The notes: generated by a model from the sequence alone, not told the origin. Shown: positions 31,819 through 58,282, numbered from the stretch's first letter. The stretch: DNA of 64,000 bases from Methanocorpusculaceae archaeon UBA425 (GCA_002506085.1 DAWV01000017.1:2602-66601), one strand, 5' to 3'. Numbers and translations are program-made.

Positions 31819-32006
31819 TGCGGGCTGCTCCGAAGGAGCGGCCTCAGCGGAGCAAATCTTTGATTTGCGACTGCGGGGTGAGCCGAAGCAGACGACCTCA
31901 ACTGAGGCGGACTGCCACGAAGGGGCAGGCTTAGCTGAGCAAGGCTTTGCCTTGCGACCAAGTTTTCGAAGGAAACTTGCGACTGCGGGCTGACACGCAG
32001 TGGCGG
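31819..32006 (+). repeat. Modular palindromic intergenic repeat, copy A
   Basis: Modules TGCGG...AGC(G/T)GAG-CAA[hairpin]TTGCGAC; hairpins GCAAATC-TTT-GATTTGC, GCAAGGC-TTT-GCCTTGC, CAAGTTT-TCGAAGG-AAACTTG are shared with the 53.6 kb and 58.1 kb copies. Confidence 0.85.
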
Positions 32007-32091
32007 CATGAGAAGAAATGTATATCACAGAATCCGCGATCGGACAGACTCAGAAATAATAGGGATATCAGTTACTGTATTTTTCCCATTC

Positions 32092-32424
32092 CTACTTTTT
32101 ATAGAGAATAATCCAGCCGACTGCAAGTCCCATGACAGCCACGCATATGTAGATCGGGAGGTAAACAAGGGCTGAGTCATTATAATACAGAAAGATGGCG
32201 GGGAAAAATGCGGCTCCGCATATCAGCGGATGAAGGATTGCTGATTTTTTAATACCTCCGGCTATCCCTGCGGGGATTCCTGTCAGAATGCAGACGACAG
32301 GGTTTACTATGAGGAGAAGGAACCAGGCAAGACCCTCTTCCTGCAGAACCAGAAGCGGGAGGAGGTAGTATACGATTCCCAAGACAAGAAGTGTCCCAAG
32401 CAGTAACGCGGCAAACGGCTTCAT
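32092..32424 (-). CDS. Small 4-TM membrane protein (possibly DUF2651-like)
   Basis: Hydrophobic 110 aa ORF; FFPAIFLYYNDSAL.Y segment. Family call is from memory. Confidence 0.6.
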   Translation of the reverse strand: MKPFAALLLGTLLVLGIVYYLLPLLVLQEEGLAWFLLLIVNPVVCILTGIPAGIAGGIKKSAILHPLICGAAFFPAIFLYYNDSALVYLPIYICVAVMGLAVGWIILYKK

Positions 32425-32426
32425 GA

Positions 32427-32609
32427 TTATTTATTCGGCATCAGAAGAGCGACACCGTATAGGGCTGCACCAAGGGCAAGAAGTGTAATGGCAGAGGCGG
32501 GTTCTATTTTCTGCATGAGGGATAACACGAAAACTGCAATACCCATTGCAAAACCGACTGCAGTGCAGATGAGCTTCGGGTGATTGATTTTATTATTTTC
32601 TTCGGTCAT
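32427..32609 (-). CDS. Small 2-TM membrane protein
   Basis: 60 aa with two hydrophobic helices; 2 nt from the next gene (operon-like); AAGGA upstream. Confidence 0.6.
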   Translation of the reverse strand: MTEENNKINHPKLICTAVGFAMGIAVFVLSLMQKIEPASAITLLALGAALYGVALLMPNK

Positions 32610-32639
32610 GGGAAATCATTTGGTCCTTCTTCCATATGA

Positions 32640-32805
32640 AAAGAGCGGTAGGCAGGGTTCCGTTCCCGCGAAATCAGCAATATCGGATTGTATCGGGCTG
32701 CCGCCTTCTCTGAACCGGTGACTGCGCTCCGTCATCAAACGAAGCCTTTTCACAGATTTTCCGGGTGGTCAGAAAGGGTGCCGGTTGGAAACCGGTTCGT
32801 TTGCT
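32640..32805. ncRNA. Candidate structured RNA or leader (unassigned)
   Basis: GC-rich intergenic stretch with nested inverted repeats; TGATGA and CTGA 64 nt apart on the minus strand. Confidence 0.3.
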
Positions 32806-32884
32806 TTGATTTTAACCTGATGAAAGCGGTGGGTTTATATCATTCAAAGAGCTACTTAGTAGAGCACTTAGTGTGTAAAGCTAA

Positions 32885-32956
32885 GTCCCGGTAGGGTAGA
32901 GGATATCCTAGAAGCCTGCGGAGCTTTTGACCGGGGTTCGAATCCCCGTCGGGACG
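32885..32956 (+). tRNA. tRNA-Arg(GCG), intronless, CCA not encoded
   Basis: Acceptor GTCCCGG/TCGGGAC; anticodon arm GAAGC-CTGCGGA-GCTTT; T-arm with GGTTCGAATCC; TTTATAT box upstream. Confidence 0.95.
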
Positions 32957-33732
32957 TCAATGGTTCAAAACCAATCCCTTTTTAATTAATGTAACCTGTT
33001 TTCACCATTTGTCATAAACCGGCATAAGCGCATCATATTTTCATACCGGAAACCCATGCAAGTATCTTTTCGCCAACCGATGCCCGGAAGAAACGGCGGG
33101 AAGTTTGTCTCTCATATAAATACCTGTGCACGTAAAAACGTCAGAAGTAATGCAGTGTACTTTTTTTAAGTTAATTTACGATACAATGGTATAATTAGAT
33201 TATGCGAAATTATTCCTGAAATATCCCTACTATCGCAGAGAATGGCAACAGATATATACAATAATGAAACGTAACACTATATTCATAGGATATTAGATTC
33301 GTTACCTGTGTATTTGTGTTAATAATTGTGTGGATGGCATGTCATAAATGAATTTTATCGTTACAAATGTATATTTTTCAATGTAGTAACATAGTTTGTG
33401 CTCTATGTCCCCCATATCTCGGCAGAAAATACCTGGTGATGATTGTAATCCGGGATATGTGAGAGATAGACTATGCTGCCAAATCATCATGATGATAACC
33501 GGCTGGATGAACTCCGGAATCAACATTCTTATAGTGAGGAGTGTCCTGTTTTATGCCGTGACAAATCCGGAAAAAATGGGTTTTATCGAAAACCGCAGGA
33601 GATTCCAATCCGAACCGTTCCGCATTATATGGTGAAGCAATGCTGCCTGCACAATTCATCTCAGTCAGGCGATCAATCAAAAGGACAATATGAATGGTTA
33701 CGAGGACACGCAGAATTGACGAGCCATCAGTA

Positions 33733-34884
33733 ATGCTACGTATTCTGCTTACCGACGGGTCATACAAGCAGACTCTTTCTGCGATTCAGCATCTCCCGAA
33801 AGACTACCACATATCAGTGTTAACCGAAGGCAGGAGAGTTCAGACACCAAGCTTCTACTCGCGGTATTGTAATCATGTAATAGTCGTCCCGCCATGTACA
33901 ACTCAGGAAGAACGTCTGTCTTCATTATTGTTATGTCTAAAGGAAGGGAATTATGATATCCTCATACCTGTCGGATTCAAGTATTCAGATGTAGTCTCAC
34001 AATATTCTGCTGAAATTAAAAAGTATGTTCAGGTTCTTGCTCCGGAGTATTCCGATTTTATTATTGCTTCCCATAAGGACCAGACGATGGACCTTGCCCG
34101 TTCTATCGGAGTCCCCATACCGGCAACAATGAAAATCGTCTGCGGGGAGGATCTTACTCATCTTACAGATTATCCTCAGGTGATGAAATCATCGACAGGC
34201 ACTGGCGGTTTCATCAGCTACAATTATTCACAAGATGAGTTGGCATCAGTGTATAAGACCCTCTCGCCGGAAGAAAAAACCCATGTGATATGCCAGGAAT
34301 ACATCTCCGGATTCGGCTGCGGGTATTTCGGCGTATATAATAACGGCGTTGAACTTGCCTATTATATGCATAAGCGGCTAAAGGAATATCCCATATCCGG
34401 GGGTCCGAGTGTTGCTGCCGAATCCTACTATGATGAACGGTTATTATCATACGGAAGAGCGCTATGTACTCAACTCCACTGGACCGGTCCGATCATGTGT
34501 GAATTCAAATATGATGAAAAACACGATGATTACAAACTTATTGAAATCAATCCGAAGTTATGGGGATCCCTTTCACTGACCCTGAATGCCGGAGTCAATA
34601 TTCCCCTGTATATTATTCAATGTCTGTCCGGGATGCCCGTATCTTTTAATAATCATTACAGATTTATTCAGTATCACTGGTTGTTAAACGGTGAATTGCT
34701 GCATGACTATGATTATCATACGCAGAATCACGGTTCCGCGCCCATCATCCCGACTGCAAAATGTTCAGTATCTGATATTAATTTCAGGGATCTGCTCCCG
34801 ACAATCTATCTGATTATATTCTCAGTATTTCAACTGATAGAACATATCCATAATTCCACGGTATATGAAGAAAATGATGAGTGA
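33733..34884 (+). CDS. ATP-grasp carboxylate-amine ligase
   Basis: ILLTDG.Y, PIPAT, QEYISG, HKRLKEYP..GG.S, CEFK, IEINPKLWGSL. Start moved to MLRIL (33733). Confidence 0.82.
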   Translation: MLRILLTDGSYKQTLSAIQHLPKDYHISVLTEGRRVQTPSFYSRYCNHVIVVPPCTTQEERLSSLLLCLKEGNYDILIPVGFKYSDVVSQYSAEIKKYVQVLAPEYSDFIIASHKDQTMDLARSIGVPIPATMKIVCGEDLTHLTDYPQVMKSSTGTGGFISYNYSQDELASVYKTLSPEEKTHVICQEYISGFGCGYFGVYNNGVELAYYMHKRLKEYPISGGPSVAAESYYDERLLSYGRALCTQLHWTGPIMCEFKYDEKHDDYKLIEINPKLWGSLSLTLNAGVNIPLYIIQCLSGMPVSFNNHYRFIQYHWLLNGELLHDYDYHTQNHGSAPIIPTAKCSVSDINFRDLLPTIYLIIFSVFQLIEHIHNSTVYEENDE

Positions 34885-35476
34885 TTTTCACATTCATTCA
34901 TATTATTCTCCGGACTCCTTAAATCCTCCATGTCTGATTCTGAAATTAGCACGAAAATGCGGTCTTGACATTATCGCAATAACGGACCATGACACCATTA
35001 AAGGAGGGCTTGCAGGTAAGAAATATATGCGTAACTCTGGGATTGAGGTGATTGTTGGTGCTGAAATACTCACGGATGCGGGGGATATTATAGGTCTCGA
35101 CCTTACCGACGAAATCCGGTCCCGCCAATATGAGGAAGTCATTATGGAGATTCATAATCAGGGGGGTCTTGTCACTTTCCCTCATCCCTTCCGTGGTCAC
35201 AAGCATATTGAGCAGATTGCTCATCTGGCTGATTTTATTGAAATCTGGAACGGACGTTCAAGTCAGGAACAAAATGAAAAAGCATTAGAACTTTCAAAGG
35301 CGCTTCATTTGAAAAAAATGGTCGGCAGTGATGCCCATCTCCCGACAGAAATCGGAAATACCCGGGCTCTTATATCGGATCAATGGCTTTTGCAGGAATA
35401 TGAAGTGCATCCTTTCCATACATATGAACTGTATATCAGCCAATCGGTAAAACGTATGAGAAAGAAACTTGCATAG
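34865..35476 (+). CDS. PHP-domain phosphoesterase
   Basis: DFHIHS.YS.DS, AITDHDT, HPFR, GSDAH. Confidence 0.85.
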   Translation: MKKMMSDFHIHSYYSPDSLNPPCLILKLARKCGLDIIAITDHDTIKGGLAGKKYMRNSGIEVIVGAEILTDAGDIIGLDLTDEIRSRQYEEVIMEIHNQGGLVTFPHPFRGHKHIEQIAHLADFIEIWNGRSSQEQNEKALELSKALHLKKMVGSDAHLPTEIGNTRALISDQWLLQEYEVHPFHTYELYISQSVKRMRKKLA

Positions 35477-35607
35477 CCGTTTTTCAGCAAAACCAAGAGT
35501 AAACAGCGGTTTTGTAATCCGGTGAATAACCGCGGGTCCGGGCGTTATCCCGATCATCTCGGAACCTGCTGTTAGATTTTCAAATTGAAGCAGTGCCGGG
35601 TTCTAAT

Positions 35608-37533
35608 CTATACCCAATACCCCTGTACACTTCCAATATCATATATAGTGTTGGTCCGGTCCAATTGTTCTTTATATGAACGTTCAACTATCATCGGAAT
35701 GGTGATCGTCTTGTAGTAATTCTCGAGCAGCCAGGTTATCTGGATAGGCCGGGTTTCCATATAATCCCTCCATATCACGATAGTGTTATCATAGTCTGCT
35801 CCTGTATCCTCGTATTTTATCGTATCTCTCTTGGTATATGCTTCCAGAACCCCGAATAACGAGCCTCCGTAGAGTTCATCCGCGGTTATCGTTTCCGTAA
35901 GATAAGGACAGAGTGTTCCAGCTGCACTCATCTCTTCAAACGTATAGGTGGTCGATATCCGGTATTCTTGGGAATATAACGGGCTGTCAAGGTTCGCCAC
36001 ACTTCCTGACATCATAATCAGGGCAAACACCACCATGATGCACGGCAGCACCTTCGCAAAGTGTCTCCATCTGAATGCAAGGAAGAGACACCCGACTGCC
36101 ATCATGACGGAGAAGAAGAGATACATAAAAGCAAACCATCGTGTCGGCATAATATTCCTCAGACCGAACAGCGGAAATACATAGGTCACGAACTGCAGAA
36201 GAAGGAATGCAGTAATAATAGTAAACGTGACTTTCGTGCGGTTTTTCGGGTGAAGCCAGAGATACATGGCAAATATGCAGAACGCAATGATAATCAGGTA
36301 TCCCCCATAGTCGAGGAAGAGAGACATAAACGATTCCCTGTATCCGGAATCTGCTGCAATCGCATCAGCCCTCTTCAGGAGTCCCGTATTCGTGCTGATT
36401 AGTGATAAATACAGTGAGGCAAATGTCTGTCCGAAAAAGTTCGATGAATTATATGCTGCATATGTCCATAGCAGAATAAGTGACACGGCATATGCTATGA
36501 AATAGATGAAATCGTTGACTGGTGTTACTTTTCTTTCCGAGATGAAATAATAGATACAACCTGAAACGAAAAATGCGCAAAGTGTTGTGAAAAGGATAAA
36601 CGAGGATACGGCATGAGTGAATAAGAGCGTGCCGGCGAATATGATAAACAGGATTCCCCAGACATGCTGCCCTTTCTCTTTCCAGACCCTGCCCATAAGA
36701 TAGATACAGAAATAAAACAGACACATGCCGAAGCTGGTTGTCTGCGGTGAAACGGCCCACATAATCGGATAATCACAGACAAGGATAATCAGAGTCGCCA
36801 GAAGCCCTGCTTTTTCTCCAAAAAAAAGACGGGCGAAGAGATATACGCAGACCGCTGAAATAACCAGCGGAAGGAGAACTGCGAGTCCGCTCGCTTCCTT
36901 TATCGGTGTATTGGTGATAATCTGAGTGATTGCTGTTGATATGTGCATTATGGGATAGGATACCTCTTTATTCATAAGTGAGGCAATATCCCCTGAGGCA
37001 ATCAGATACTCATTCATACCCATATGAATCCAGTAATCGATTCCTGATCCGCCGTAGAATAGGTAGACTGAAAGTCTGACCTGCAGCCCAAGCATCAGAA
37101 TTTTTAAAAGATGAAAGATGGAATCCTGTTTTTTTCTTGCTGATAATATGGAGACAACAATCAGTCCTGCACATATGGCAGTTATGATGAAAAATGCGGG
37201 CGGGCGGGTATTCGGGTTTGTTAATAATATCAGGAAGGAGACGGCAGTTAATATCCAGAACACTATGGAGGTTGTTTTCCCGGTTCGTATGCCAAAATAC
37301 GCGTTATGACTGCGATACATCTCATACGGGATTCCGATGTAGTTCTTTTTCCACAGCCTGATAAACAGATATAGCGGAGAAACGATTATCAGGGCGATTC
37401 CTATGATTAATATCATCATTGTTGGAGATATCTGATATAAATATAAGAGAAATATTCCAACCATAACGCCAAATAAAGCTACTGCTATGTCGAGACGGGA
37501 GAGGAGAAATTTGAGAAAGTATTTCGGCTTCAT
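35608..37533 (-). CDS. Polytopic membrane protein of the glycan cluster (GT-C / polymerase-like, unassigned)
   Basis: 641 aa with many TM segments, a D(Y/W).H motif in the first loop and a soluble C-terminal tail. Confidence 0.65.
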   Translation of the reverse strand: MKPKYFLKFLLSRLDIAVALFGVMVGIFLLYLYQISPTMMILIIGIALIIVSPLYLFIRLWKKNYIGIPYEMYRSHNAYFGIRTGKTTSIVFWILTAVSFLILLTNPNTRPPAFFIITAICAGLIVVSILSARKKQDSIFHLLKILMLGLQVRLSVYLFYGGSGIDYWIHMGMNEYLIASGDIASLMNKEVSYPIMHISTAITQIITNTPIKEASGLAVLLPLVISAVCVYLFARLFFGEKAGLLATLIILVCDYPIMWAVSPQTTSFGMCLFYFCIYLMGRVWKEKGQHVWGILFIIFAGTLLFTHAVSSFILFTTLCAFFVSGCIYYFISERKVTPVNDFIYFIAYAVSLILLWTYAAYNSSNFFGQTFASLYLSLISTNTGLLKRADAIAADSGYRESFMSLFLDYGGYLIIIAFCIFAMYLWLHPKNRTKVTFTIITAFLLLQFVTYVFPLFGLRNIMPTRWFAFMYLFFSVMMAVGCLFLAFRWRHFAKVLPCIMVVFALIMMSGSVANLDSPLYSQEYRISTTYTFEEMSAAGTLCPYLTETITADELYGGSLFGVLEAYTKRDTIKYEDTGADYDNTIVIWRDYMETRPIQITWLLENYYKTITIPMIVERSYKEQLDRTNTIYDIGSVQGYWV

Positions 37534-37850
37534 TTACACTCTATCTCTGGCAGCAGATATTATTGACCGGGTAACTGGCGATTAGCATCACAAAAGGTAA
37601 TAATTGCGACTGTCCAAAGGATATATTTGCAGTTCTAGAATAAATACCGTTGCTTTGTCCGGAACAATTCAAGTTGATAATGCTCGTAATTATAAGGAGA
37701 TTTTAACGATATTTACCGGATATATCCGATTTCTTCACAAGATTTGCAATAGGTTTCCCTGTGGAATAATCCTGTTTTTCGCCGCCCACTCCATAGTCAT
37801 GTTTTTTTTGGAGGCTGGTTTTGTCCCGGCGCTCTCCGGTCAAGAAAAGT

Positions 37851-38981
37851 TCAGATACTTATCAGGAATTCTTTCAGGACTTTCATCTTTGCGAGCCAGT
37901 CCAGATGTGTCTCTGCATATTCACGCATCTTTTTGTGATGGTTTGAATCCTCCATTACTCTTTCTGCAAATGCAAGCACGAGATTCATATCAATCGGTTC
38001 TTCAGTTGCGGGAACCATCTGAATATATTCCCAGTTTTCAGGGAAATCCGAGTCTTTGGATGCCATCATGAAAGGAATCCCCCGTGCACAATATTCCCTG
38101 GATTTGAGAGAGGATAATTCATTTAAGTTTACTCTGAATCCTGCCAGAGATCCAATGGCTATATGACACTGATTAAACATAGTGTCAAGTTCTTTGCCGG
38201 ACCTGAACCCGTAGAAGGTAACCTTTGATTCAAGATGAAGTGCGGCGGCGAGGGATTTAATATTGGGAAGTTCCTCTCCGTCGCCAACGATATGGAGATG
38301 GATTTTTCTATGACCTGTGTAATCCTTCAGACTCATAATGAAACGGTCGAGACCGTGCCAATAGGCGACTCCGGCAACGCAAAGCACATGGCACTCATCC
38401 TGCAGTCCCGGCGGATGCCTCATTGGTATCGATGACACCTCAACCCCGTTTCCAAGAGTAAGATACCGGAGTCTGTTCCCGGTAACTGTACGATTGTGAT
38501 CGGTTATTTCATTCGTAACAGAAACAACGGCATTCGCACGGGATTTAATAAATTTTTCCAAAAGGATTACGCAGGCTGTCTGAAATGCCTTGTGTAGTTT
38601 ATATTTGAAATATATCTGCCGGGATGGACGAAGTTCATCCTTTTCAATAGCCTGTATCTCAAAAACGACTTTCGGGGTTCTCTGCATCGACAGGAGAAAT
38701 GCATCAAGCAGGTAAATCGACACCCCGCGGATATAAATGCAGTCATCTTCGGTATATTCACGCAGGGCTTTTTTGTAGGCGGTGAACGTATTATATGCCA
38801 GGTCTATTCGTCCGGGGATTCCTCCGCGTTCTGATGAGCAGCCCGCGAGCTCTACATTCACGCCAAGTGTTCTCAAACAGCGAACCTGAGCCAATATCTT
38901 TTTTTCTATGCCGGTTCTATCACGTTTTTCCTTGTTCTTATAATAATCACCGGCAATATAACATACTCGCATGATTTTCAA
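37851..38981 (-). CDS. GT4 glycosyltransferase
   Basis: GNGV, WHGLDR, VGDGEE, SSLKSREYCARG.P. Confidence 0.85.
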   Translation of the reverse strand: MKIMRVCYIAGDYYKNKEKRDRTGIEKKILAQVRCLRTLGVNVELAGCSSERGGIPGRIDLAYNTFTAYKKALREYTEDDCIYIRGVSIYLLDAFLLSMQRTPKVVFEIQAIEKDELRPSRQIYFKYKLHKAFQTACVILLEKFIKSRANAVVSVTNEITDHNRTVTGNRLRYLTLGNGVEVSSIPMRHPPGLQDECHVLCVAGVAYWHGLDRFIMSLKDYTGHRKIHLHIVGDGEELPNIKSLAAALHLESKVTFYGFRSGKELDTMFNQCHIAIGSLAGFRVNLNELSSLKSREYCARGIPFMMASKDSDFPENWEYIQMVPATEEPIDMNLVLAFAERVMEDSNHHKKMREYAETHLDWLAKMKVLKEFLISI

Positions 38982-39051
38982 TTACTATGCATCTCCTGTA
39001 TGCCTGATTTTATCTGAAAAACCGGCTGTATCGAATAAGAGAACAGAGGAT

Positions 39052-40239
39052 TCATAGATATTTCCCATATACTGCAAGAATTTCCTTAGTTACTGTGTCC
39101 AAGGTAAAGTGTTGAGCATATTCATGTATCGCCTGACTGTCCCATTCAGTATTCAGTGCCAGAATAATCTTTTTGGATAAGTCAGCCGGATTTTCCGGCT
39201 CACACAGCAATCCATAGGCATCATCAATCAGAATTTCGGGAATTCCTCCCGCATTTGACGCAACAACCGGTTTCCCGCATGCCAGTGCCTCGATATTCAC
39301 GACGCCGAAGCTTTCATTCAGACTGGGCAGCACAAATATATCGCATGCATTCATCCACAAGGGAATTTCCGCATGCGGTTTCGCCCCGGGCATTATAACA
39401 GAGCCCTGCAGTCCAAGGTCGGCTATCTTCTTCTGCAATGCAGGATACAACTCCCCGCTGCCGACAATAACACACAAAACATCGGGATGCATACGTTTTA
39501 TCTCCATCATCGCCTCAATAAGAATCCATTGTCCCTTATCCCTGTTACAGTTCCCGACGGTCAGAATTATTTTTCTATCCGCCGGAAGCCCGAGGGTATT
39601 TCTGCTCTCTTCCCGGGAAGTCGGATGAAACTGCCTGGCATTGAACCCGTTCGGAATAACGGATACGGGCGTCTCAACACCCAGTTTCTGCAGGCATTCC
39701 AGATTCGTCCTGCTCACAGTAATGATATGGTCGGCTGCATTCAGAACCTGACAGATCCGTTTTTTCCAGGCAGCACTTCTGAACGGGATGTCATACACAT
39801 CATATCCGTGACCGGTAACAATGAACGGAACACCATACTTCTCTTTCAGTCTCATACCCGCATATCCTGAAGACCAGATAAAGTGGGCATGCATCAATGA
39901 AGGAGGTGCGATTTTTTCATCTCTGATCACTTTCCCGACTGCCCGGAAATGGCGTTCACCCATCCGCTGATAATCAAAATCGAGCGGGAGATAGGTAACC
40001 GGAGTCTGATACACATGACAATTCCGGGGCAGGCTGACGCGGTTTATTTTCGCATCGGGTGCTATGTTTCTGAATCTCCCAGGAGAGATACGGGATGCCG
40101 CCGCGAACAGAGGATTTGTTCTGACAAAGGTATGAATTTCGGATTTCTGAAGCGGGATATTCTCGATTTGATCCTTCTGGAATGCTGTATAAGAATGGCA
40201 AATATAATATATCGGGGATAAATCCGTCACTGAACTCAT
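39052..40239 (-). CDS. GT4 glycosyltransferase (TuaC-like)
   Basis: HAHF..SG, VTGHGYD, IPNG, LPSLNESFGVVNIEALACG. Start moved to MSSV (40239). Confidence 0.88.
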   Translation of the reverse strand: MSSVTDLSPIYYICHSYTAFQKDQIENIPLQKSEIHTFVRTNPLFAAASRISPGRFRNIAPDAKINRVSLPRNCHVYQTPVTYLPLDFDYQRMGERHFRAVGKVIRDEKIAPPSLMHAHFIWSSGYAGMRLKEKYGVPFIVTGHGYDVYDIPFRSAAWKKRICQVLNAADHIITVSRTNLECLQKLGVETPVSVIPNGFNARQFHPTSREESRNTLGLPADRKIILTVGNCNRDKGQWILIEAMMEIKRMHPDVLCVIVGSGELYPALQKKIADLGLQGSVIMPGAKPHAEIPLWMNACDIFVLPSLNESFGVVNIEALACGKPVVASNAGGIPEILIDDAYGLLCEPENPADLSKKIILALNTEWDSQAIHEYAQHFTLDTVTKEILAVYGKYL

Positions 40240-40332
40240 ATGATTCACCGCTATCCTCTGAAATATGAATCTGTAATGCACGGGATTACATTCAATCGTG
40301 TCCGCCGCACGGATACCCTGAATCTCATTGTA

Positions 40333-42144: not shown

Positions 42145-42153
42145 TTTATTCTC

Positions 42154-46286: not shown

Positions 46287-46301
46287 TGCCGGTCTGATTT
46301 T

Positions 46302-46337
46302 CACCTGTTTTCGGAGAGAGGAATCTGAAAACAGGTG
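46302..46337. terminator. Inverted repeat between convergent genes
   Basis: 11-bp perfect stem CACCTGTTTTC / GAAAACAGGTG between the wecB and deacetylase stops. Confidence 0.55.
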
Positions 46338-46346
46338 CCGTATCCC

Positions 46347-47390: not shown

Positions 47391-48247
47391 TTTTCCTCAC
47401 AAAATTATGACCAATAATCCCGGGATTCTGCAGAAAAATATCTGATTGCATGGTATACACAAATCATACAGTCAAAGACACTGCTCCGTAACGATACATA
47501 GTATTCATGAAAATTCTCCACACCATAATTTACACCGCCATACAGATTCCGAATTGAAATCCAATAGCAATCGTATATTACGTTTTACCATTGAATATAT
47601 CTGTTGTCTGTTGGAACTGACAGGTTTCATTTGAAAAAAATTCATTGCAGTGGTAAAATGATTGTAAGACATTTTTGGAGCCGGAATCTCCCAAACAGCC
47701 GGGAAACCCGCCATCAAAAAATGATTTGATGCATTGTATAATATAGTGATAAATCTTTTACTTACATATAAGGGCAGTGCAGGTGTGTCATTAAAAGCGG
47801 AATAAAGTTGTCAGATTAAAACCAGAGTAATCGATTCTGATAAACCTGATGATGGTATTTTCATCAGTTATCATAATTGCACAGAGATTTATTCTCAGTC
47901 CTCATGCGTTCTTTTGAGCAGTTTGGATATATTGCAGCGTCAAATGCGGAGATTAGAAGAATTTCATTGAATCAGCCAGAGAAAACCATGCCTTTAATAC
48001 TTATCGAAATCAATCAGATTATTATCAAATCAGTCCTGTCGTTAATCCCTTTGCGTGAATATACGAATAAAATGAATGGAGCACATGTCTCCGTATGTAG
48101 TGACTGCTTTATCAAATCCTGTTCCTATGTGTGCCGCGGTCTGACGGGAGGAATGATTACTGCGGGAAACCCTGCATGGGCATGTAATCTTCCCGAATAT
48201 AAACAGAAAATGGGGATGAATTCGCCTTAAATCATCGGTGTCCTGGC

Positions 48248-49456: not shown

Positions 49457-49651
49457 AATCAGTATTCTGCCCGCCGCCTGCAGGCCCGGGATAGCAGAGT
49501 CATACAACTATTCCCGTCCCGGACGACAGCAGTCATTATGACAATTTTACGAATTTCTTCAGCACTTAAGACCACGACATATGGTTGATGGGAAGGACGT
49601 AAACGGCAACTAAATCTTTTCGTGTTAGTACAAATCAGCTGTGTGATTTCC

Positions 49652-49739
49652 GGATGTACTTCGGTTTCGTGTACGGGATTCTTTTTGATGGTCGTATCAT
49701 CACACGGAAACTCGGAAAATAAAAAAGAATCGTCTGGAT
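49652..49739 (+). repeat. Second intergenic repeat family, uninterrupted copy
   Basis: GGATGTACTTCGGTTTCGTGTACGGGATTCTTTTTG...CGTATC|ATCACACGGAAA...AAAGAATCG.CTGGAT; homologous to 53966-54121. Confidence 0.8.
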
Positions 49740-49822
49740 ATCTGCAAAAGACTCAGTGAACCTCTATAATGGTGAGGACTCTATCACAGAATTCGCGAGC
49801 GGGCAGCCTCCATGTAAAAAAA

Positions 49823-50623
49823 TCAGACTTTTTTATAATATGTCTTAAATTGCTGCCAGCCGGGATTCATTGTCCTCCGTCCCGGCGCATACTCCCAGGA
49901 ATATTTGATAGCGCCGCTCACGAACTTCTTTGCCTCGCAAACTGCGTCCCGCACAGGATAGCCGAGAGCGATATGGGCCGCGATTGCGGAAGCATAGCAG
50001 CACCCCGAGCCATGAACATTCGTAAACGGCGAGACCTCGCCTTCGACGAGCATCAGACCGTCTTTGTCGGCATAGACATCGGTCCCGAGACGGAAAAACG
50101 CATGACCCCCTTTAACGACTGCGGATTTTGCTCCATTATCGATGAACCAGAATGCCGCCTGCTCCATTGATTCGGCATCCGTTATTTTTATGCCGGAGAG
50201 GGCGGCCGCTTCCGGGAGGTTAGGGGTTACGACGGTTGTTATGGGGAGAAGGTCCGAGACGAGTTTTTCCTGACCCGCCTCATCGAGAAGCCGGTATTCT
50301 TTTGTCGCAAGAAGGACCGGGTCGACAACGAGATTTCGTCCTTTCGGCAGAGCCTGAACGACGGCATCCACCGTCTCTCCATTTTTCAGCATCCCTGTCT
50401 TATAGCAGCCGATTTCAAAATCCTCCTCGAGCGCGTCAATCTGCTCTTTGATAAAGAAGGCAGGTACACTTGCCGTGTCCACTACATGACTGGCATTTTG
50501 CGCGGTAAGCGCCGCAACGACGGTCATCCCCCAGACCCCGCAGGCGGTCATAGTTTTCAAATCGACCTGAAGACCTGCTCCGCCGGACGGGTCGGAACCG
50601 GCAATTGATGCGGCGAAAGCCAT
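49823..50623 (-). CDS. thiD: Hydroxymethylpyrimidine/phosphomethylpyrimidine kinase
   Basis: IAGSDPSGGAGLQ.D, KTGML, VVDPV, TPNLPEA, KGGH, HGSGC. Confidence 0.92.
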   Translation of the reverse strand: MAFAASIAGSDPSGGAGLQVDLKTMTACGVWGMTVVAALTAQNASHVVDTASVPAFFIKEQIDALEEDFEIGCYKTGMLKNGETVDAVVQALPKGRNLVVDPVLLATKEYRLLDEAGQEKLVSDLLPITTVVTPNLPEAAALSGIKITDAESMEQAAFWFIDNGAKSAVVKGGHAFFRLGTDVYADKDGLMLVEGEVSPFTNVHGSGCCYASAIAAHIALGYPVRDAVCEAKKFVSGAIKYSWEYAPGRRTMNPGWQQFKTYYKKV

Positions 50624-50735
50624 TTTCGTATGTATCGAACTCATAATTCCTATAATGGGATGACAACTCAAAAAATACTTCGCCACGCGGTATAATCCCG
50701 TATCTTTATAGTCTGTCCCTTCACATGTATTTTGT

Positions 50736-52052
50736 ATGGATGTGGAAGGCTTCGTTCGCCGGAGCATGACAAAGAACATACCTGAAGAAAAGATAGAGAA
50801 ACTTCTTCAGGAACGTATTCAGGAAATGAAAGATATCGATGACGGCTATGCTGAAGATTTTGCCAGAGCCGTAATCGAGGAAGTGAAAGTAACAAGCGGC
50901 CTTACGGGCGATTTGTTTGAATATGAGCACGCCGGCGTTACGATGGGCGAGTTCGGCGTGGGTTCGCGTGGTTCGGGGGACTTTTACGCCCACAGAAAAA
51001 TCGCCCGTGTTATCGGTAAGACCTCGGCGAAGGTCGGGGTCGACCAGATGGACGACGGCGGCGTGGTCCAGGCGAACGGTCAGTATATAATAACGACCGT
51101 GGACGGGATGCATTCCCGGTTATCAGATTTTCCGTATCTTGCGGGATTTCATGCGACTCGGGCAACGCTCCGTGATGTTTACGTGATGGGTGCACGGCCG
51201 GTCGCTCTGATTTCCGATGTGCACATCGCGGATGACGGCGATGTGGCGAAACTTTTCGATTACACGGCAGGAATTACGACGGTGGCGGATGCTTTGGGCG
51301 TTCCGCTGAATGCGGGTTCAACGCTTCGTATCGGCGGGGATATGGTTCTCGGCGACCGGATGACGGGATGTGTCGGCGTGGTCGGCGTTGCCAATCATAT
51401 TACCGCCCGCCGCTCATCGGTTCCGGGTGATGTGCTTCTGATGACGGAAGGCTCAGGTGGAGGGACGATTGCGACGACTGCTCTTTATTCGGGCAATGCC
51501 GATGTGGTCGAGGAGACGATTAATCTGCAGTTCCTGAAAGCCTGCGATGCTCTGATTAATTCTGAGGTGTTCCCGCATATTCATGCGATGACTGATATCA
51601 CGAACGGGGGTCTTCGCGGGGATGTGTTCGAGATTGCGGAAACGGCAGATTCCACGGTGGTTGTGGATGATGCGCCGCTCCGTGGTCTTATCGCCCCGAA
51701 GGTACTTGCCCTTCTGGACAAACTCGGTATCGATTATCTTGGTGTGAGTCTGGATGCTCTTCTGGTTATTGCGCCGCCGGAGTATGCGGATGAGATTATC
51801 CGGGTCGTCGCGACGGCAGGTGTGAGAATGGAGAGAATCGGGTGCGTCCGTGAAGGTCCGGGTGTGTCCCGCCTGGTGAAAAACGGGGTCGAAGGACCGT
51901 TCCAGCCGAAGTTCCGTGAAGCTCCCTATACGCCTCTTAAGAAAGTTGTTGACCGACCTGGTCGGGACTTTGATGAGATGAAGAGGGGTATCGATCGGGC
52001 GGCAGAGGCGGCACTCGCGAAGAAACAGCGGATGCTGAAGAAATTATTGTGA
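50736..52052 (+). CDS. Archaeal AIR synthase (PurM/HypE/ThiL-fold)-related protein
   Basis: DDGG, TVDGMHSRLS.FP, LRDVYVMGA.P, MTDITNGG. Function not assignable. Confidence 0.75.
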   Translation: MDVEGFVRRSMTKNIPEEKIEKLLQERIQEMKDIDDGYAEDFARAVIEEVKVTSGLTGDLFEYEHAGVTMGEFGVGSRGSGDFYAHRKIARVIGKTSAKVGVDQMDDGGVVQANGQYIITTVDGMHSRLSDFPYLAGFHATRATLRDVYVMGARPVALISDVHIADDGDVAKLFDYTAGITTVADALGVPLNAGSTLRIGGDMVLGDRMTGCVGVVGVANHITARRSSVPGDVLLMTEGSGGGTIATTALYSGNADVVEETINLQFLKACDALINSEVFPHIHAMTDITNGGLRGDVFEIAETADSTVVVDDAPLRGLIAPKVLALLDKLGIDYLGVSLDALLVIAPPEYADEIIRVVATAGVRMERIGCVREGPGVSRLVKNGVEGPFQPKFREAPYTPLKKVVDRPGRDFDEMKRGIDRAAEAALAKKQRMLKKLL

Positions 52053-52161
52053 GCCAGACCTCTTCCTTTTTTTAACAGATTAATGCTGAATCTATCCTGC
52101 GTGCCGAACAGAGAGCGGCGTGATATATATCCCCGCGTAAACCAATATATTTCCGCATTCA

Positions 52162-53568
52162 ATGACTGAGATTATCCATAATCCGCTTTACCAGAAACTC
52201 CTGCTGTTAGCTGTGGGTGTCGCCGTATTCATGGATGCTCTTGACGGTTCGGTTGTTAATATCTCTCTCCCGGTCATTGCCGCGGATTTTGGAACCGACG
52301 CAGGGACAGTTGCCTGGGTGAGTGTCTCCTATCTTCTGGTTATTGCGGGTCTCCTTCTTACATTTGGAAAACTCTCTGACTGCGGGTATGTCAGAATTAT
52401 TTTTATCGCAGGGTTTGTTGTATTCACTCTCGGGTCGGTCGTCTGCGGGTTATCACCAAACCTCACGGTCCTTATCGCCTCACGGGTTTTTCAGGGAGTA
52501 GGAGCTGCGATGATTGCTGCCTCGGCCCCGATGCTCTGTGTAAAATTCCTGCCTATGAATATGCTCGGCGTTTCCCTGGGTGTATTGACAGCGGCAAGTT
52601 CAATCGGATTTGCCGTGGGTCCTGCGATTGGCGGCGTTATTACCGCATTTCTCTCCTGGCACTGGATATTTTTCCTCAATATTCCGATCGGCATTTTCGC
52701 GGTGCTGTTTGCCGTAAAAATAATCCCGCGGTCTGTCTCAGTGGATAAATGTGCTTTCGATTTCGCCGGGGCATTCGCTTTATTCTGTATGATGGCATCT
52801 GGTGTTTTTGCGCTGGAACGTCTCCCTCACCTCGGGTTTTTGAGTCCGGTAATTATTTTTTCAGCTGGTATCTGTGTGGTCTCGCTGATTCTGTTTATCC
52901 GGTTCGAACTGAGAAGCAGGCATCCTATTCTGAATATCAGGGTGTTTGCAAAATGGCCGCTTACGTTGACGATTACGGCATTTTTAATTCTTCAGCTTAC
53001 GAATGCAGGGCTGGTTTATCTTCTTCCGTTCTATCTGTCGGCAGGTATGAATTTTGATGCAGCGGTTAGCGGTATTTTCCTCATTCTGCCTCCGGTTATT
53101 ACCGCAATTCTCAGCATTCCTTTCGGGAAATGGTCTGATAATACCGGGCGGCGCGGATTTGCTGTCGCGGCATGTGTTTTTCTCGCTCTGACGAATGGAG
53201 TTTATGCGCTGATTGTTCCGGAATGGGGAATTATTCCGCTGATTCTTTCTCTCGTTATGATGGGTCTTATCTGGGGTATTGGCGGCGGACCTGTTTCCAG
53301 CAGAATTGTTGAGCAGATGCCGGACGATGAGAGGGGGACCGGGTCTTCGCTGATGATTACCTGTATGTATTTTGGAGCCTGCGTAGGAACTGCTCTTTAT
53401 GCCTCGATATTCACGGTTCTGACGTCGGGTGCCGGGGGTATTCTCTCGTTTGCGGATCTGGATTATGCGGTGTTTATGTACGGGTTCCATATATCGAATG
53501 GAATTGGCGCAGTTCTCGCGATTATCGCGGTGATTCTTTCTGCAGTCGTTAAAGACCCGGCGAAATGA
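52162..53568 (+). CDS. 14-TM MFS transporter (DHA2/EmrB-QacA type)
   Basis: FMDALDGSVVNISLP, GKLSD..G, SRVFQGVG, GPAIGG, W.WIFFLNIPIG. Confidence 0.9.
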   Translation: MTEIIHNPLYQKLLLLAVGVAVFMDALDGSVVNISLPVIAADFGTDAGTVAWVSVSYLLVIAGLLLTFGKLSDCGYVRIIFIAGFVVFTLGSVVCGLSPNLTVLIASRVFQGVGAAMIAASAPMLCVKFLPMNMLGVSLGVLTAASSIGFAVGPAIGGVITAFLSWHWIFFLNIPIGIFAVLFAVKIIPRSVSVDKCAFDFAGAFALFCMMASGVFALERLPHLGFLSPVIIFSAGICVVSLILFIRFELRSRHPILNIRVFAKWPLTLTITAFLILQLTNAGLVYLLPFYLSAGMNFDAAVSGIFLILPPVITAILSIPFGKWSDNTGRRGFAVAACVFLALTNGVYALIVPEWGIIPLILSLVMMGLIWGIGGGPVSSRIVEQMPDDERGTGSSLMITCMYFGACVGTALYASIFTVLTSGAGGILSFADLDYAVFMYGFHISNGIGAVLAIIAVILSAVVKDPAK

Positions 53569-53571
53569 TGA

Positions 53572-53770
53572 TGCGGGTTGGATGCGGAACGCAGACGACC
53601 TCAGCGGAGCAAGTTTTCGAAGGAAACTTGTGACTGCGGACTGCTCAATAAGAGCGGTCTTAGCTGAGGCGGGGACCTTTAGGTCCCTCAGCCGAGCAAG
53701 GCTTTGCCTTGCGACTGCGGGTTGGCGACGAAGGCGACGGTCTTAGCCGAGCAAGTCGATAGACTTGCGA
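53572..53770 (+). repeat. Modular palindromic intergenic repeat, copy B (three modules)
   Basis: Modules 53572-53634, 53635-53715 and 53716-53770; starts 4 nt after the MFS stop; hairpins shared with copy A. Confidence 0.85.
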
Positions 53771-53965
53771 GTGGTGCGGGATGTCCCTCGCGGAGAGCCG
53801 GCGGGCGATTTACCGGGAGTGGCTGCTTTCGTTGATTCGGGAAGAGTTTGGGGAGGACGGGTTGAAGGAGTTTGGGATCGGGCGTTAGCCCGGGTAGACT
53901 AACGTGCGATTAGCGTTCCCCTTCCCCCGGGGAACAGAATTGGATTTGCCCAAGCGGGATTCTTT

Positions 53966-54121
53966 GGATGTACTTTGGTTTCGTGTACGGGATTCTTTTT
54001 GCTGACCGTATCCCCGCAAGGCATTTGCCTTGCTCGGCTGAGGTCGTCCGCGTTCCGCGTCCAACCCGCCATCACACGGAAATCACACAGAAACACGGAA
54101 AATCTAAAGAATCGGCTGGAT
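53966..54121 (+). repeat. Second repeat family copy carrying an inverted 58-bp palindromic module (54013-54070)
   Basis: Flanks match 49652-49739; the insert is the reverse complement of a copy-B-type module. Confidence 0.8.
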
Positions 54122-54403
54122 GGAGCCCATGTAGTTCCCTCCCCCGTCCCCCCCCCTTTGCGCGAGCACGGGGCGAAGCCTTCGCGTACATCCGCGGTCG
54201 TATTGCGCCCCCCCCTTCTCTCCCCTTGCGCAAGCCCCCCGGGGGGGGGTGATTCCGGAATGAACGTGGTGGTTATTGACCGGGCATGAATATTTTCTGG
54301 ATAGGTACTACGCTCACCTATTTAGGTAAGAACGAAAGCCGGGTCTCTATTTTTCATCTATCCGGTCAGTCCTTCGCGCCTTTACCCGAAACACCCGGCA
54401 TCC

Positions 54404-54432
54404 GGTTAACTATATAAAAACATCTCTTAACC
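54404..54432 (+). promoter_or_regulatory. grpE-dnaK-dnaJ promoter: TATA box bracketed by an inverted repeat
   Basis: GGTTAA (54404-54409), TATATAAA (54411-54418), TTAACC (54427-54432). Confidence 0.55.
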
Positions 54433-54509
54433 ATTATATGCTCAGATAAAAACAAATATATAGAACTGCAATACAACAAATATGTGCAACAAGCGAAACA
54501 GGAATTTAC

Positions 54510-55043
54510 ATGGACAAAAACACCGAGCAGGCTGACGTTCCCCAAAACGACGCCAAACCTGCAGAAAACCAGACACCGGATGAAAAAACCGTTCCTGAAA
54601 CCACTGTTGTTGACGAACTCACTAAAAAATACGACGAACTCAATGACAAACATCTTCGTCTCGCCGCCGAATTCGAAAATTACAAAAAGCGTGTCAAACG
54701 CGACCAGGACACCGCTGTCAAATACGCAACCGAAAAGTTTGCGCTCGACATGCTCGACATACTGGACAACTTCGAACGTGCACTAAAAAGTGACGACGAC
54801 AAACTTCGCGACGGACTGGAGCAGATTCATAAACTCTACCAGTCCATCCTCTCCAGAAACGGTATCGAAGTGATCAAAATCACCAAAGGAACGCAATTCG
54901 ACCCCAACATTCATGAAGCGATTGTCAGCATCAAAGCCGACGTCCCCGAAGGGGAAATCATCGACATTGCAGCTCCCGGATACACAATCCGCGACAAAGT
55001 ACTACGTCACGCAAAAGTCGCAGTGGCGCAGAAAAAAGAATAA
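54510..55043 (+). CDS. grpE: Nucleotide exchange factor GrpE
   Basis: [31 protein letters not shown]....KVLR.AKV.V. Confidence 0.95.
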
Positions 55044-55056
55044 AAAGGTAATAAAA

Positions 55057-56925
55057 ATGGCATCAAACAAAGTAATCGGCATTGACCTTGGAACCACCAA
55101 CTCCTGCCTTGCTATCATGGAAGGCGGAAGTCCGATCGTTATCGCAAACTCGGAAGGATTCAGAACAACCCCGTCTGTCGTCGGCTTCTCCAAAGACGGA
55201 GAGAGACTCATCGGAAACGTTGCAAAACGTCAGGCAATCACAAACCCGACCCGGACCATCAGCTCAATCAAACGGTTCATGGGAACCGACCACACCGTTG
55301 ACATCGACGGGAAAAAATACTCCCCGCAGGAAATCTCCGCAATGATTCTGCAGAAACTCAAAGTTGATGCAGAAGCATACCTCGGCGAAAAAGTAGACAA
55401 GGCAGTAATCACCGTCCCCGCATATTTCAACGATGCCCAGCGTCAGGCAACCAAAGATGCAGGCAAAATCGCAGGACTTGAGGTTCTTCGTATCATCAAC
55501 GAGCCCACCGCCTCTGCCCTCGCCTACGGACTTGAAAAGGAAAAGGAACTCACCGTCCTTGTCTACGACCTCGGCGGCGGAACATTCGATGTCTCCATCC
55601 TGACCCTTGACGACGGACTCTTCGAAGTCAAATCAACCGCAGGAAACAACCGTCTCGGCGGAGATGACTTCGATGCACGTGTCGTCGACTTCCTTGCCGA
55701 CGAATTCAAGAAGAAAGAAGGTGTCGACCTGAGAAAGGACCCGGTTGCACACCAGCGGCTGAAGGATGCTGCAGAGAAGGCAAAAATCGAGCTTTCCTCA
55801 CTTCAAAAGGCAAACATCAACCTCCCCTATATTACTGCGACCGCAGACGGACCCAAACACCTGGATTTCGACCTGACCCGTTCGAAATTCGAGCAGCTCA
55901 TCGACGACCTTGTCCAGAAGACCGTCGACCCGGTCAAGCAGGCATTAAAGGATGCAGGACTCACCGCGGCAGATATCAACCATGTCCTCTTAGTCGGCGG
56001 TTCGACCCGTGTACCGGTGGTAATCGATACCGTGAGAAACCTCCTCGGCAAAGAGCCGGACAAGAACCTGAACCCTGACGAGTGCGTCGCTCTCGGAGCA
56101 GCTATTCAGGGAGCAGTCCTCACCGGTGAAACAAAGGATGTCGTCTTACTGGATGTCACCCCGCTGACACTCGGTATCGAGACCCTTGGCGGCATCGCCA
56201 CCAAACTCATTGAGAGGAATACCACCATCCCGACCAGAAAGAGCCAGATCTTCTCAACCGCCGCAGACAACCAGACCTCAGTCGAGATTCACGTTGTCCA
56301 GGGAGAACGCCAGTTCGCCCGTGATGATTTCAGCCTGGGTAAATTCCAGCTTACCGGCATCCCGTCGGCACCCCGCGGAATGCCCCAGATTGAAGTCACC
56401 TTTGATATCGATGCAAACGGAATCGTCCATGTCTCCGCAAAGGACCTTGGAACCGGTCATGAACAATCCATGACGATCTCCGGCAGAAAAGACCTCAAGG
56501 ACGACGAAATCGACAAGATGGTCAAAGACGCCAAGCAGTTCGAGGAAGAGGATAAGAAACGCCGTGAAGAGGTCGAACTCCGTAACAACGCAGACAATGC
56601 TGTTTACGCCGCAGAGAAACTCGTAAACGACAAAGAGACCACGGACAAAATCGACGCCGAAGACAAGGAAAAGATCAAGACCGGCGCCGGGGAACTGAAA
56701 GAAATCCTCGCAAAAGAGGATGCATCCTCCGAGGCTATCAAAGAGAAGATGGATTCCCTCCAGGAAGCGGTCTTTGCAGCCACTTCCAAGATGTATCAGA
56801 AGATTCAGGAAGAGCAGAAGGCAGCCGAAGCCGCAAAAGCCGGTTCCGGAACTGATGCCAAATCCGACTCATCCAAATCCGATGATAATGTAGTAGATGC
56901 AGACTACGAAGTGAAAAAGGACTAA
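55057..56925 (+). CDS. dnaK: Hsp70 chaperone
   Basis: [40 protein letters not shown]. Start moved to MASNK (55057). Confidence 0.98.
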
Positions 56926-56947
56926 ACTCCTTTTTGGGATGTAAGAA

Positions 56948-58078
56948 ATGGGTTCTGAATCGTACTATGATGTCTTAGGTATTCCCCGTAATGCTACAGA
57001 GACGGACATTAAAAAGGCTTACCGGAACCTCGCCAAGAAGTATCACCCCGATGTCTGCAAAGAGCCCGGGGCTGAGGAGAAGTTCAAGTCTATCAACGAG
57101 GCGTATAGTATTTTGTCGGATGAGACGAAACGCCGCCAGTATGATCAGCTTGGACATGATAACTTCACGAATGCGTCGAAGGGTAACTATTCCGGGTCAG
57201 GCGGCGCCGGATTCAATGCGGACTTCTCGGGATTCGGAGATATTTTCGATTTCTTCGGCGGAGGAGGGCGCAGACAGAGCGGCCCGCAGGAAGGCGACGA
57301 CCTCTTAATGCGTATCCAGATTACCCTTGAAGATGCGGTGTTCGGTGCGCAGAAAGAGATTGAGGTCATGCATACGGAAAGCTGCCCTGATTGTGAAGGG
57401 ACCGGCAGTTCTACGAAGAAGACGGTAAAATGCAGTAAATGTAATGGTACCGGTCAGATTAAGCAGGTGAAAAACTCTATCTTCGGTCAGATGGTGACCC
57501 AGAGTCCGTGTCCGGAGTGCGGAGGGCGGGGAAAGATTCCCGAGTCTCCGTGCCGGAAATGTAACGGGACCGGCAGGACGAAGATTCGCCGTAAGGTGAC
57601 GGTGAATGTGCCGCCGGGCATTGATTCCGGGATGCGCCTTCGGATGGAAGGATACGGCGAGGCGGGAGACTTTGGAGCGAAAAACGGTGACCTCTATATT
57701 GAGGTCTATGTTATTTCGAATCCGAAGTTCGACCGTGAAGATGATAATCTGATTACGCAGTATGAAATCTCGCCTGCCCAGGCGGTGCTCGGCTGCGAGG
57801 TGGAGATTGAGACAATCGACAGAAAGAAGGTTGCGCTGAAGATTCCGGCTGGAATTTCGTATGGGACACGCCTCCGTATTCCAGGCGAAGGAGTCCGCAG
57901 GCGCGGAAACTACGGGAATCTCCTGGTCAGAGTTGTTATCGCTACGCCTAAGAAAATATCCCCGGCTGAACGGGAGCTTTATGAGCAGCTTCTGAAGGCA
58001 GAGGGAAATCCGGTTCATTCCTCGTCATCGAAGAGTGATGAGAAAGACGGCAGAAAAAAACGCGGGATCTTTAAATAA
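56948..58078 (+). CDS. dnaJ: Hsp40 co-chaperone
   Basis: J domain with HPD, G/F region, four CxxCxGxG repeats. Confidence 0.97.
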
Positions 58079-58082
58079 GTGA

Positions 58083-58282
58083 GGATGGAGTGAAGGTTTC
58101 CTTCACTCCATCCGAAGCGGGGAGCAAATCTCTGATTTGCGACCAAGTAAGTGCGAAGCGGGAAGCAAAACCGTGCGACTCGCGACCAAGTGAGTGCGAA
58201 ACGGGGAGCAAATCTCTGATTTGCGACCAAGCGAGTGAAGCGGGAAACAAAGCCATAAGGTTTTGCGAGTACGAAACGGGAG
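58083..58282 (+). repeat. 14-bp perfect hairpin followed by tandem 41-43 bp palindromic units (variant of the repeat family)
   Basis: Stem 58083-58096 / 58100-58113; units 58113-58153, 58154-58196, 58197-58237, degenerate 58238-58271; GAGCAAATCT.TGATTTGCGAC is shared with copy A. Confidence 0.85.

Follow-up and report, generated by a model that had tools for sequence, protein, structure and literature searches.

The 64,000-nt stretch analyzed here (the window) comes from Methanocorpusculaceae archaeon UBA425 (GCA_002506085.1 DAWV01000017.1:2602-66601) and corresponds to C3:2602-66601 of a 1.81-Mb, 28-contig draft genome. It contains a family of modular, hairpin-forming repeats at 31.8, 53.6, 54.0 and 58.1 kb. 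The elementary unit of this family is a pair of two hairpins, module A followed by module B, and is 53-60 nt long. Units or short strings of units have inserted at many places in the genome with defined ends and without target-site duplication. The family is probably comparable to the REP (repetitive extragenic palindromic) sequences and bacterial interspersed mosaic elements (BIMEs) of bacteria. A covariance model (R1), built from 44 distinct A+B units of the genome, served to scan the whole window with filters off. The R1 matches within the window are confined to the four sites, which are those where the original prediction had placed repeat copies. The features at these sites are as follows.

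31819-31871, plus strand: canonical A+B unit (R1 74.2 bits, E 7e-16). The A module is GCGG + GGCTGCTCC-GAA-GGAGCGGCC + CTCAGCGGAG and the B module is CAAATC-TTT-GATTTG + CGAC.
31872-31958, plus strand: A-A-B block. The second A and the B form a canonical unit at 31906-31958 (R1 66.3 bits).
31959-31983, plus strand: extra B module CAAGTTTTCGAAGGAAACTTGCGAC, with a 9-bp stem, one T·G pair and a GAA loop.
31984-32045, plus strand: truncated or degenerate A module, then GGCGGCATGAGAAG...AGAATCCGCGATCGG (weak R1 match, 14.6 bits).
53572-53771, plus strand: array A-B-A-A-B-A-B, with R1 matches at 53572-53634, 53635-53667, 53668-53715 and 53716-53771. The first, third and fourth of these score 42-51 bits.
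54013-54070, minus strand: solo 58-nt A+B unit within a copy of a second repeat family (R1 50.6 bits).
58081-58282, plus strand: locus-specific tandem array with a 41/84-nt period (Tandem Repeats Finder period 41, 3.4 copies).
58080-58143 and 58174-58227: weaker R1 matches at the 58.1-kb site (20-23 bits).

The 31.8-kb site reads, in order, A-B / A-A-B / B / truncated A. Its A module at 31872-31905 is a chimera in which a GGGTGAGCC-type 5' arm is joined at the loop to a GCAGACGACC-type loop and 3' arm, as recognized by direct reading against the A-type vocabulary of the genome. This module is unable to pair because its arms come from two A types. The extra B module at 31959-31983 contains an exact 21-mer that occurs 14 times in the genome. 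By eye, the sequence that follows the truncated A module resembles the decayed outer end of an arm of the PDDEXK_3 cassettes described below.

A local tandem array built around the B module forms the 58.1-kb site, which is not a canonical member of the family. It is composed of a long hairpin (GGATGGAGTGAAGG/CCTTCACTCCATCC), a linker (GAAGCGGGGAG) and B modules (GCAAATCTCTGATTTGC GAC CAAG). Its scaffold, CGAAGCGGGGAG, is found at a single locus in the whole genome, and only the B module is held in common with the family. In this respect the original prediction, which built all four sites on a constant scaffold, is corrected. The individual hairpins named in that prediction are located as described, except that at 54.02 kb the loop of the GCAAGGC/GCCTTGC hairpin is 4 nt long (ATTT) and not 3. 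Three copies had been placed just downstream of a stop codon. This is the case for two, as the 53.6-kb array begins 3 nt past the stop of the open reading frame (ORF) at 52162-53568 and the 58.1-kb array begins 3-35 nt past the stop at 58078. The 31.8-kb copy lies 86 nt past the stop of a minus-strand ORF and is antisense to that ORF.

Genome-wide, 122 arrays carry two or more module marks, and the family counts 237 A junctions and 230 B hairpins. All three figures are lower bounds because 37 arrays adjoin N-runs and 18 lie within 600 nt of a contig end of the draft. The arrays total about 16.8 kb, or 0.9% of the draft. Only four copies genome-wide, or a match to a known family, would have told against the original prediction; approximately 122 arrays are present, and there is no Rfam match to them. 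At the gathering threshold of Rfam 15, tRNA alone is matched in the window, and at E <= 1 the three array regions yield one chance-level match, which lies outside the arrays.

Read from the window sites beside other genomic copies, the arrays follow the grammar (A)n(B)m, which can repeat. Module A consists of [T/G]GCGG, a 9-11-bp hairpin and the linker CTYAGCNGAG. Module B consists of CAA-stem-loop-stem-TTG followed by CGAC or, less often, by CGAG, CGAT or CGCG. The pattern that spans the junction of the two modules, CTYAGCNGAGCAAN{8,12}TTGCGAC, has 65 matches in the genome versus 0 for a control read backwards, which excludes a chance origin.

Both hairpins are maintained by compensatory change. 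In the alignment of 44 units, standard pairs are present in 94% of cells, whereas slid controls are 29-45% paired. Cells with a double change number 127, compared with 33 ± 5 in shuffles (0 of 500 as high). Stem pair 8-26 is U·G in 25 of the 44 units, C-G in 13 and U-A in 6, and the pair beside this wobble position covaries (C-G, U-A, G-C). The commonest A types have a tandem G·A / A·G internal loop, for example GGTTG-GA-CGCG-GAA-CGCG-GA-CGACC. Across 242 A hairpins, the mean fold energy is -12.55 kcal/mol for the written strand versus -9.85 kcal/mol for its complement (183 to 59; p 1.6e-27), and G·T pairs number 159 on the written strand versus 41 on the complement. One strand folds better because of the conserved T·G wobble and, often, the tandem G·A loop in module A. 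The constrained object is therefore one folded strand and not a symmetric duplex site.

The modules are shuffled between copies, as had been predicted. Among 131 A+B units there are 121 distinct sequences, and the chimeric A module at 31872-31905 joins two types within a single hairpin. One 52-nt unit recurs in three arrays with differing neighbors.

Insertion of discrete units, in line with the mobility raised in the original prediction, is shown by paralogous sites in the genome and by presence and absence between species. In the window, the host repeat at 53966-54121 and its paralog differ by exactly the 58-nt unit at 54013-54070. The empty site is as follows.

49652-49739, plus strand: empty-site paralog with the junction CGTATC / ATCACACGG, not itself a member of the hairpin family.

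In other copies of this host repeat, the same site is occupied by longer arrays. A systematic search for paralogs in which both flanks of an array are contiguous gave 15 clean filled/empty pairs. Inserts of a single A+B unit are 53, 57, 59, 59, 59 and 60 nt long and inserted strings are 70-206 nt long. The inserts start with (G)GCGGG and finish with TTGCG(AC/AG/CG), at times with one extra T or G, and the flanks are mostly G. No target-site duplication is present in any of the 15 pairs, and microhomology is 0-6 nt. One host repeat, CGAAAAGGGGGACAGGGGCGG / AGGAATGGGA, is empty in approximately 15 copies and filled in at least three.

On contig C19, a 57-nt unit lies in frame (+19 codons) within an ORF of approximately 110 codons (~13900-14290). 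Its paralog at C9:22339-22504 is without the unit, and the flanks of the insertion point are 95% identical. This small ORF, which starts MNDIPPTLQERLKPLFF..., has approximately 93 codons without the insert. Judged from the identity of the paralog flanks, the insertion is recent.

Between species, the locus orthologous to the 58.1-kb site contains one to three units in the five genomes carrying the family (carriers) that were aligned there (G023, G017, G024, G003 and G046), all represented by plus-strand loci. In G003, an extra canonical A+B unit is inserted directly after TTGCGAC. In six further carriers the gene pair persists and its spacer measures 129-218 nt. Eight carriers lack the 31.8-kb array at the orthologous gene end. 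Since another gene abuts that gene end in these carriers, the 31.8-kb site is also a synteny breakpoint.

The arrays are mostly intergenic. When they are masked, no called long ORF spans any of the 122 arrays; when they are unmasked, 18 stop-to-stop frames read through arrays, and most of these frames are short, one having 557 codons. Arrays lie between convergent genes in 35% of cases versus a background of 17%, and between divergent genes in 21%. In intergenic regions between genes of the same direction, 23 arrays are in sense and 21 in antisense orientation, as assigned from crude ORF calls. Adjacent arrays are convergent in 15 cases versus divergent in five. The members of convergent pairs are 140-840 nt apart, and the spacers between them are other repeat families with terminal inverted repeats, for example ...CACGAAAAGGGGGACAGGGGCGG. 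The window contains one such composite of an array with other repeat families, at 53572-54213. The embedding of arrays in larger composites, which is usual, and the different nature of the 58.1-kb site both go beyond what had been predicted.

The family is confined to one subclade of Methanocorpusculum. The R1 search recovers it in 14 of 21 genomes of the genus and in 0 of 130 genomes from 32 other genera of Methanomicrobiales, the sister genus included, which agrees with the lineage specificity proposed for this intergenic hairpin mosaic. The exact junction pattern is present in nine of 25 genomes of the genus, counting the source genome, and in none of 16 genomes outside it. Synteny of the 58.1-kb locus is common to carriers and not to non-carriers. 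Identical 29-mers recur between species whose flanking genes are only approximately 80% identical. This means that the family either remains active or is constrained.

The genome of one carrier, G042, consists of one contig (1,804,962 bp) and has 85 A/B junctions, half of which lie at 650-930 kb. It contains higher-order tandem amplifications with a 132-nt period (x5), an 80-nt period (x4) and a 109-nt period (x3), at C1:69529-70199, C1:871971-872223 and 711799-712178. These amplifications create long spurious ORFs with repeated peptide motifs. The units of G042 are oriented in blocks, mostly minus at 660-840 kb and plus at 861-930 kb; no simple two-replichore pattern is seen, the origin not having been located.

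The comparison with REPs and BIMEs implied mobilization by a REP-associated tyrosine transposase (RAYT), which the gene content does not support. PF01797, the Y1 HUH domain of RAYT and IS200 type, has no match in the source genome or in 10 congeners, four complete carriers included, while the control genomes are positive. TnpB is also absent, as PF07282 gives sub-threshold matches alone, to a conserved single-copy protein. The multi-copy ORFs of the assembled genome are housekeeping paralogs and none is transposase-like. Genes bracketed by inverted arrays in the source genome and in G042 were considered as mobilizers and rejected. They encode a pentapeptide/channel-like protein, MsrAB, a PIN-like protein, an S-layer-like protein and a Schlafen/AlbA-like protein; none is transposase-like and none recurs.

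The sole candidate mobilizer seen is a nuclease cassette. PF13366 (PDDEXK_3, GxxExxY) is multi-copy in the genus, is present in 18 of 18 high-quality genomes searched and reaches 20 copies per genome. At 15 of 16 loci examined, the gene is bracketed by inverted arms of 27-215 nt. The outer ends of the cassettes are CGCGAAT arrays preceded by GTGTGGA.GCATGAGAA. The cassettes and their remnants in the source genome, all outside the window, are as follows.

C25:5604-6448: complete PDDEXK_3 cassette, with its protein encoded at 5856-6254.
C7:9-110, C10:153413-153529 and C19:25472-25561: PDDEXK_3 gene fragments at contig ends.
C19:6186-6675 and C8:5410-5856: PDDEXK_3 arm pairs without a gene.

The window contains no PF13366 cassette, and cassette ends are not found on the hairpin units; the two are linked by co-location only. 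Six of 18 arm termini are within 400 nt of a hairpin array, versus 5% expected. In G042, four of five PF13366 genes are within 1.3 kb of a junction motif, versus approximately 7% expected. PDDEXK_3 is a candidate at most because it is more abundant in species without the family and the ends of its arms bear no relation to those of the units.

The family is probably a non-autonomous, modular, REP/BIME-like set of hairpins that is independent of RAYTs, is handled as a folded single strand and belongs to one Methanocorpusculum subclade. The element would be recognized or processed as a folded single strand, most likely as single-stranded DNA (ssDNA) at replication or repair. Handling as ssDNA rather than as a transcript is suggested because orientation relative to transcription is random. 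Insertions often lie at G-rich spots, inside other repeats or at an existing module boundary. Head-to-tail arrays are built in this way and are afterwards altered as modules are gained, lost and recombined. The catalyst would be some host or selfish enzyme and not a Y1 HUH enzyme (RAYT or IS200-type TnpA). A bolder form of this explanation is that the A+B pair is among the smallest autonomous-looking insertion units and the first archaeal REP-like system, moved single-stranded by a non-HUH enzyme, possibly PDDEXK_3 or a hairpin-specific recombinase. In that form, which is speculative and distinctly unlikely, the conserved T·G wobble and the tandem G·A loop would be the recognition marks of the enzyme.

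Several points weigh against the REP/BIME-like explanation. The PF01797, PF07282 and multi-copy-ORF searches found no mobilizing enzyme. Identical full units are rare, unlike in an active REPIN (REP doublet) population with a master sequence, and this rarity could mean that an old family was reshuffled by recombination. G·U wobbles and loops of the GAA/GNRA-like kind are just as characteristic of functional RNA. We infer current activity from comparisons in which the nearest genome is approximately 89% identical. The gaps and contig ends that lower the array and module counts, and the crude gene calls behind the orientation test, are to be set on the same side.

That the modules are functional RNA structures, with selection at the RNA level and dispersal secondary, is unlikely. 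They would then be stabilizers of the 3' untranslated region, processing or termination signals, or protein-binding sites. Such roles would fit the conservation of the G·U wobble at a fixed position while the neighboring pair covaries, and the predominance of GAA and GATA loops with some loops of GNRA type. They would also fit the enrichment of arrays between convergent genes and the two window copies that begin a few bases past a stop codon on the sense strand. The 58.1-kb array is kept in the five aligned carriers with an identical B hairpin although the flanking genes are approximately 80% identical, and the similar size of the spacer in six more carriers that keep the gene pair points the same way. 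The orientation of the arrays relative to genes is random, however, and a role in sense RNA is therefore disfavored; the arrays between divergent genes also speak against it. Units have entered other repeats in either orientation and, in one case, an ORF in frame, and the arrays are without an Rfam match even at E <= 1. Archaeal termination relies on oligo-T tracts and is not known to use hairpins, which weighs further against this explanation. The role in termination or mRNA stability raised in the original prediction is not favored by the near-equal sense and antisense counts or by the arrays between divergent genes.

In a second alternative, the units are dispersed targets or non-autonomous passengers of the PDDEXK_3 cassettes, with the nuclease cutting or nicking folded hairpins and thereby driving copy-in, in the way that RAYTs serve REPs or that Ssn nucleases work on their NTS repeats. 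This is quite improbable. No coding element seen in the genome other than the cassettes looks selfish. PF13366 genes are multi-copy in the genus, occur in each of the 18 high-quality genomes searched and have inverted arms at nearly every locus examined. In the source genome, three of the four copies are at contig ends and one cassette is complete. Arrays are closer to the cassettes than expected, both around the arm termini and in G042, and the arms in carriers hold GCAA...TTGC hairpins and one inserted A+B unit. Congeners without the hairpin family (G002, G007 and G012) nevertheless have 15-20 copies of the gene, the cassette ends are unlike the unit ends (GCGGG...TTGCGAC), and more than 100 arrays are far from any cassette. 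The co-location may only mean that both are tolerated in the same kinds of intergenic region. A literature search yielded no biochemical activity for the PF13366 family. If PDDEXK_3 does move the units, an orphan nuclease family of very large size would gain its first function, and palindromic repeats would have a new way of spreading.

An inert relic, left by an ancient burst and altered since by recombination, slippage and gene conversion with no transposition-like process or present function, would account for the many distinct units, the chimeric module, the tandem amplification (periods of 80-132 nt in G042 and 41 nt at 58.1 kb) and the enzyme searches that found none, but is very improbable given modules that match letter for letter across species while coding flanks have diverged by approximately 20%, compensatory change that keeps paired positions, at least one insertion that is recent, as judged from its 95% identical flanks, and clean, recurrent ends in 15 insertions.

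The REP/BIME-like family can be compared with other classes of small repeats. The BOX elements of Streptococcus pneumoniae have the form boxA-boxB(n)-boxC, with a variable internal module, a predicted stable structure and no known transposase. The family is like BOX in being modular, in its variable number of modules, in its predicted structure and in the absence of a known transposase; the sequences are unrelated. The terminal modules of BOX are fixed; in the present family the number of A modules and the number of B modules after them are both free, and arrays repeat. Archaeal MITEs (miniature inverted-repeat transposable elements) and the palindrome-associated transposable elements (PATEs) derived from IS200/IS605 are small, non-coding, dispersed, structured and non-autonomous. 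The family resembles both in being made of small, non-coding, dispersed and structured elements. A MITE was rejected, as there are no terminal inverted repeats at the level of the unit, no duplication in the 15 pairs and no parent insertion sequence (IS). A PATE derived from IS200/IS605 was rejected with the absence of PF01797 and the sub-threshold matches to PF07282. A CRISPR array was also rejected, as the modules abut without spacers and differ from copy to copy.

Like the REP, BIME and REPIN-RAYT systems of Proteobacteria (PMC3116915, PMC3337134), the family consists of short imperfect palindromes at many intergenic sites that form mosaics, is enriched between convergent genes, has strand-asymmetric hairpins and no target-site duplication, and is lineage-restricted with long vertical persistence. 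As in REPs, the palindromes are high-copy and mostly outside genes. Unlike REP-RAYT systems, the family lacks a Y1 HUH gene in all 11 genomes tested and has no GTAG or CGTC tag in the unit alignment or at the ends of the 15 inserts. The unit, unlike a REP, couples two different hairpins in a fixed pair, joined by a constant linker. The inserts are single A+B pairs in one orientation and the arrays are mainly head-to-tail, unlike REPIN doublets; the convergent array pairs are not doublets either, as their members lie 140-840 nt from each other with other repeat families in between. Nearly all units differ in their combination of modules, with no master sequence and its variants, and the host is an archaeon, again unlike REPINs. 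The family does not belong to REP-RAYT because it lacks a RAYT, has neither a GTAG nor a CGTC tag and forms no REPIN doublets.

The REPs tagged with CGTC, which include dRS3 and the Neisseria intergenic mosaic elements (NIMEs) and some Rickettsia palindromic elements (RPEs), also have no dedicated transposase known, and some of their members occur in mosaics (NIME) or in frame within genes (RPE) (PMC3733652). In them, CGTC is combined with a stem of 8-9 bp, a loop of 4-5 nt and a CCA tail (PMC3733652), whereas the motifs here are GCGG...CTYAGCNGAG and CAA...TTGCGAC. They have been reported in five bacterial phyla, with no methanogen named (Di Nocera et al. 2013, PMC3733652). In the Ssn/NTS system of Neisseria (PMC11893778), the nuclease is of the GIY-YIG type, unlike the PD-(D/E)XK nuclease here, whose link with the hairpins is co-location only. 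Two surveys of REPs (PMC3733652, PMC12306157) describe no archaeal REP family of this kind and do not cover Methanocorpusculum, and a full-text literature search found no publication on repeats in Methanocorpusculum. The family is apparently undescribed.

What is new is an insertion unit of two hairpins in an archaeal host with no HUH partner. REP-type elements are understood by way of their RAYTs. Palindromic mosaic repeats can arise and spread by another route, since these genomes are without RAYT, TnpB or a recognizable IS. The family is under clear structural constraint, has clean junctions at its insertions and has persisted through speciation. Its unit ends, its strand asymmetry and the nearby orphan nuclease cassettes are handles for finding the enzyme, and cultured strains with complete genomes in the genus make the family testable. 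The repeats break short-read assemblies of Methanocorpusculum and mark synteny breakpoints.

The ORF at 52162-53568, upstream of the largest array in the window, encodes a 468-aa membrane-transporter-like protein. It has one close relative in the genus (84% identity), and its next best matches, at about 35% or less, are in Methanoregula and bacteria. From this pattern of matches, the gene, at whose end the array starts, may have been acquired horizontally. The site at 53.5 kb is without a clean empty ortholog because synteny stops at the stop codon of the transporter and there is one close relative in the genus.

Two other dispersed repeat families occur at the window sites. The second family, GGATGTACTTCGGTTTCGTGTACGGGATTCTTTTTG... 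followed by CACGGAAA-type short repeats, is present at 49652-49739 and 53966-54121; its core 11-mers occur approximately 74 times in the genome, and it hosts insertions of hairpin units. The third family, GGGGCGAAGCCTTCG[A/C]GTACATCCGCGGTCG..., is present at 54150-54200 and has the most frequent core 11-mers of the genome (approximately 85 copies). It often adjoins hairpin arrays and makes composites with them. An inverted repeat, CCCGCGGAT ... ATCCGCGGG, occupies 31700-31761, just upstream of the 31.8-kb array. Its ATCCGCG motif recurs in the third family and resembles the arm unit of the nuclease cassettes.

The 11-mers of TTTCGTGAATTGAAATTCACGTGCCCACGT occur approximately 55 times each genome-wide and may represent a CRISPR repeat or another dispersed family. 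Diverged direct repeats with 71-78% identity, 17.7 kb apart, are present at 5881-6127 and 23557-23803 and also at 6823-6954 and 24483-24614. Both pairs have the look of gene paralogs and not of mobile repeats.

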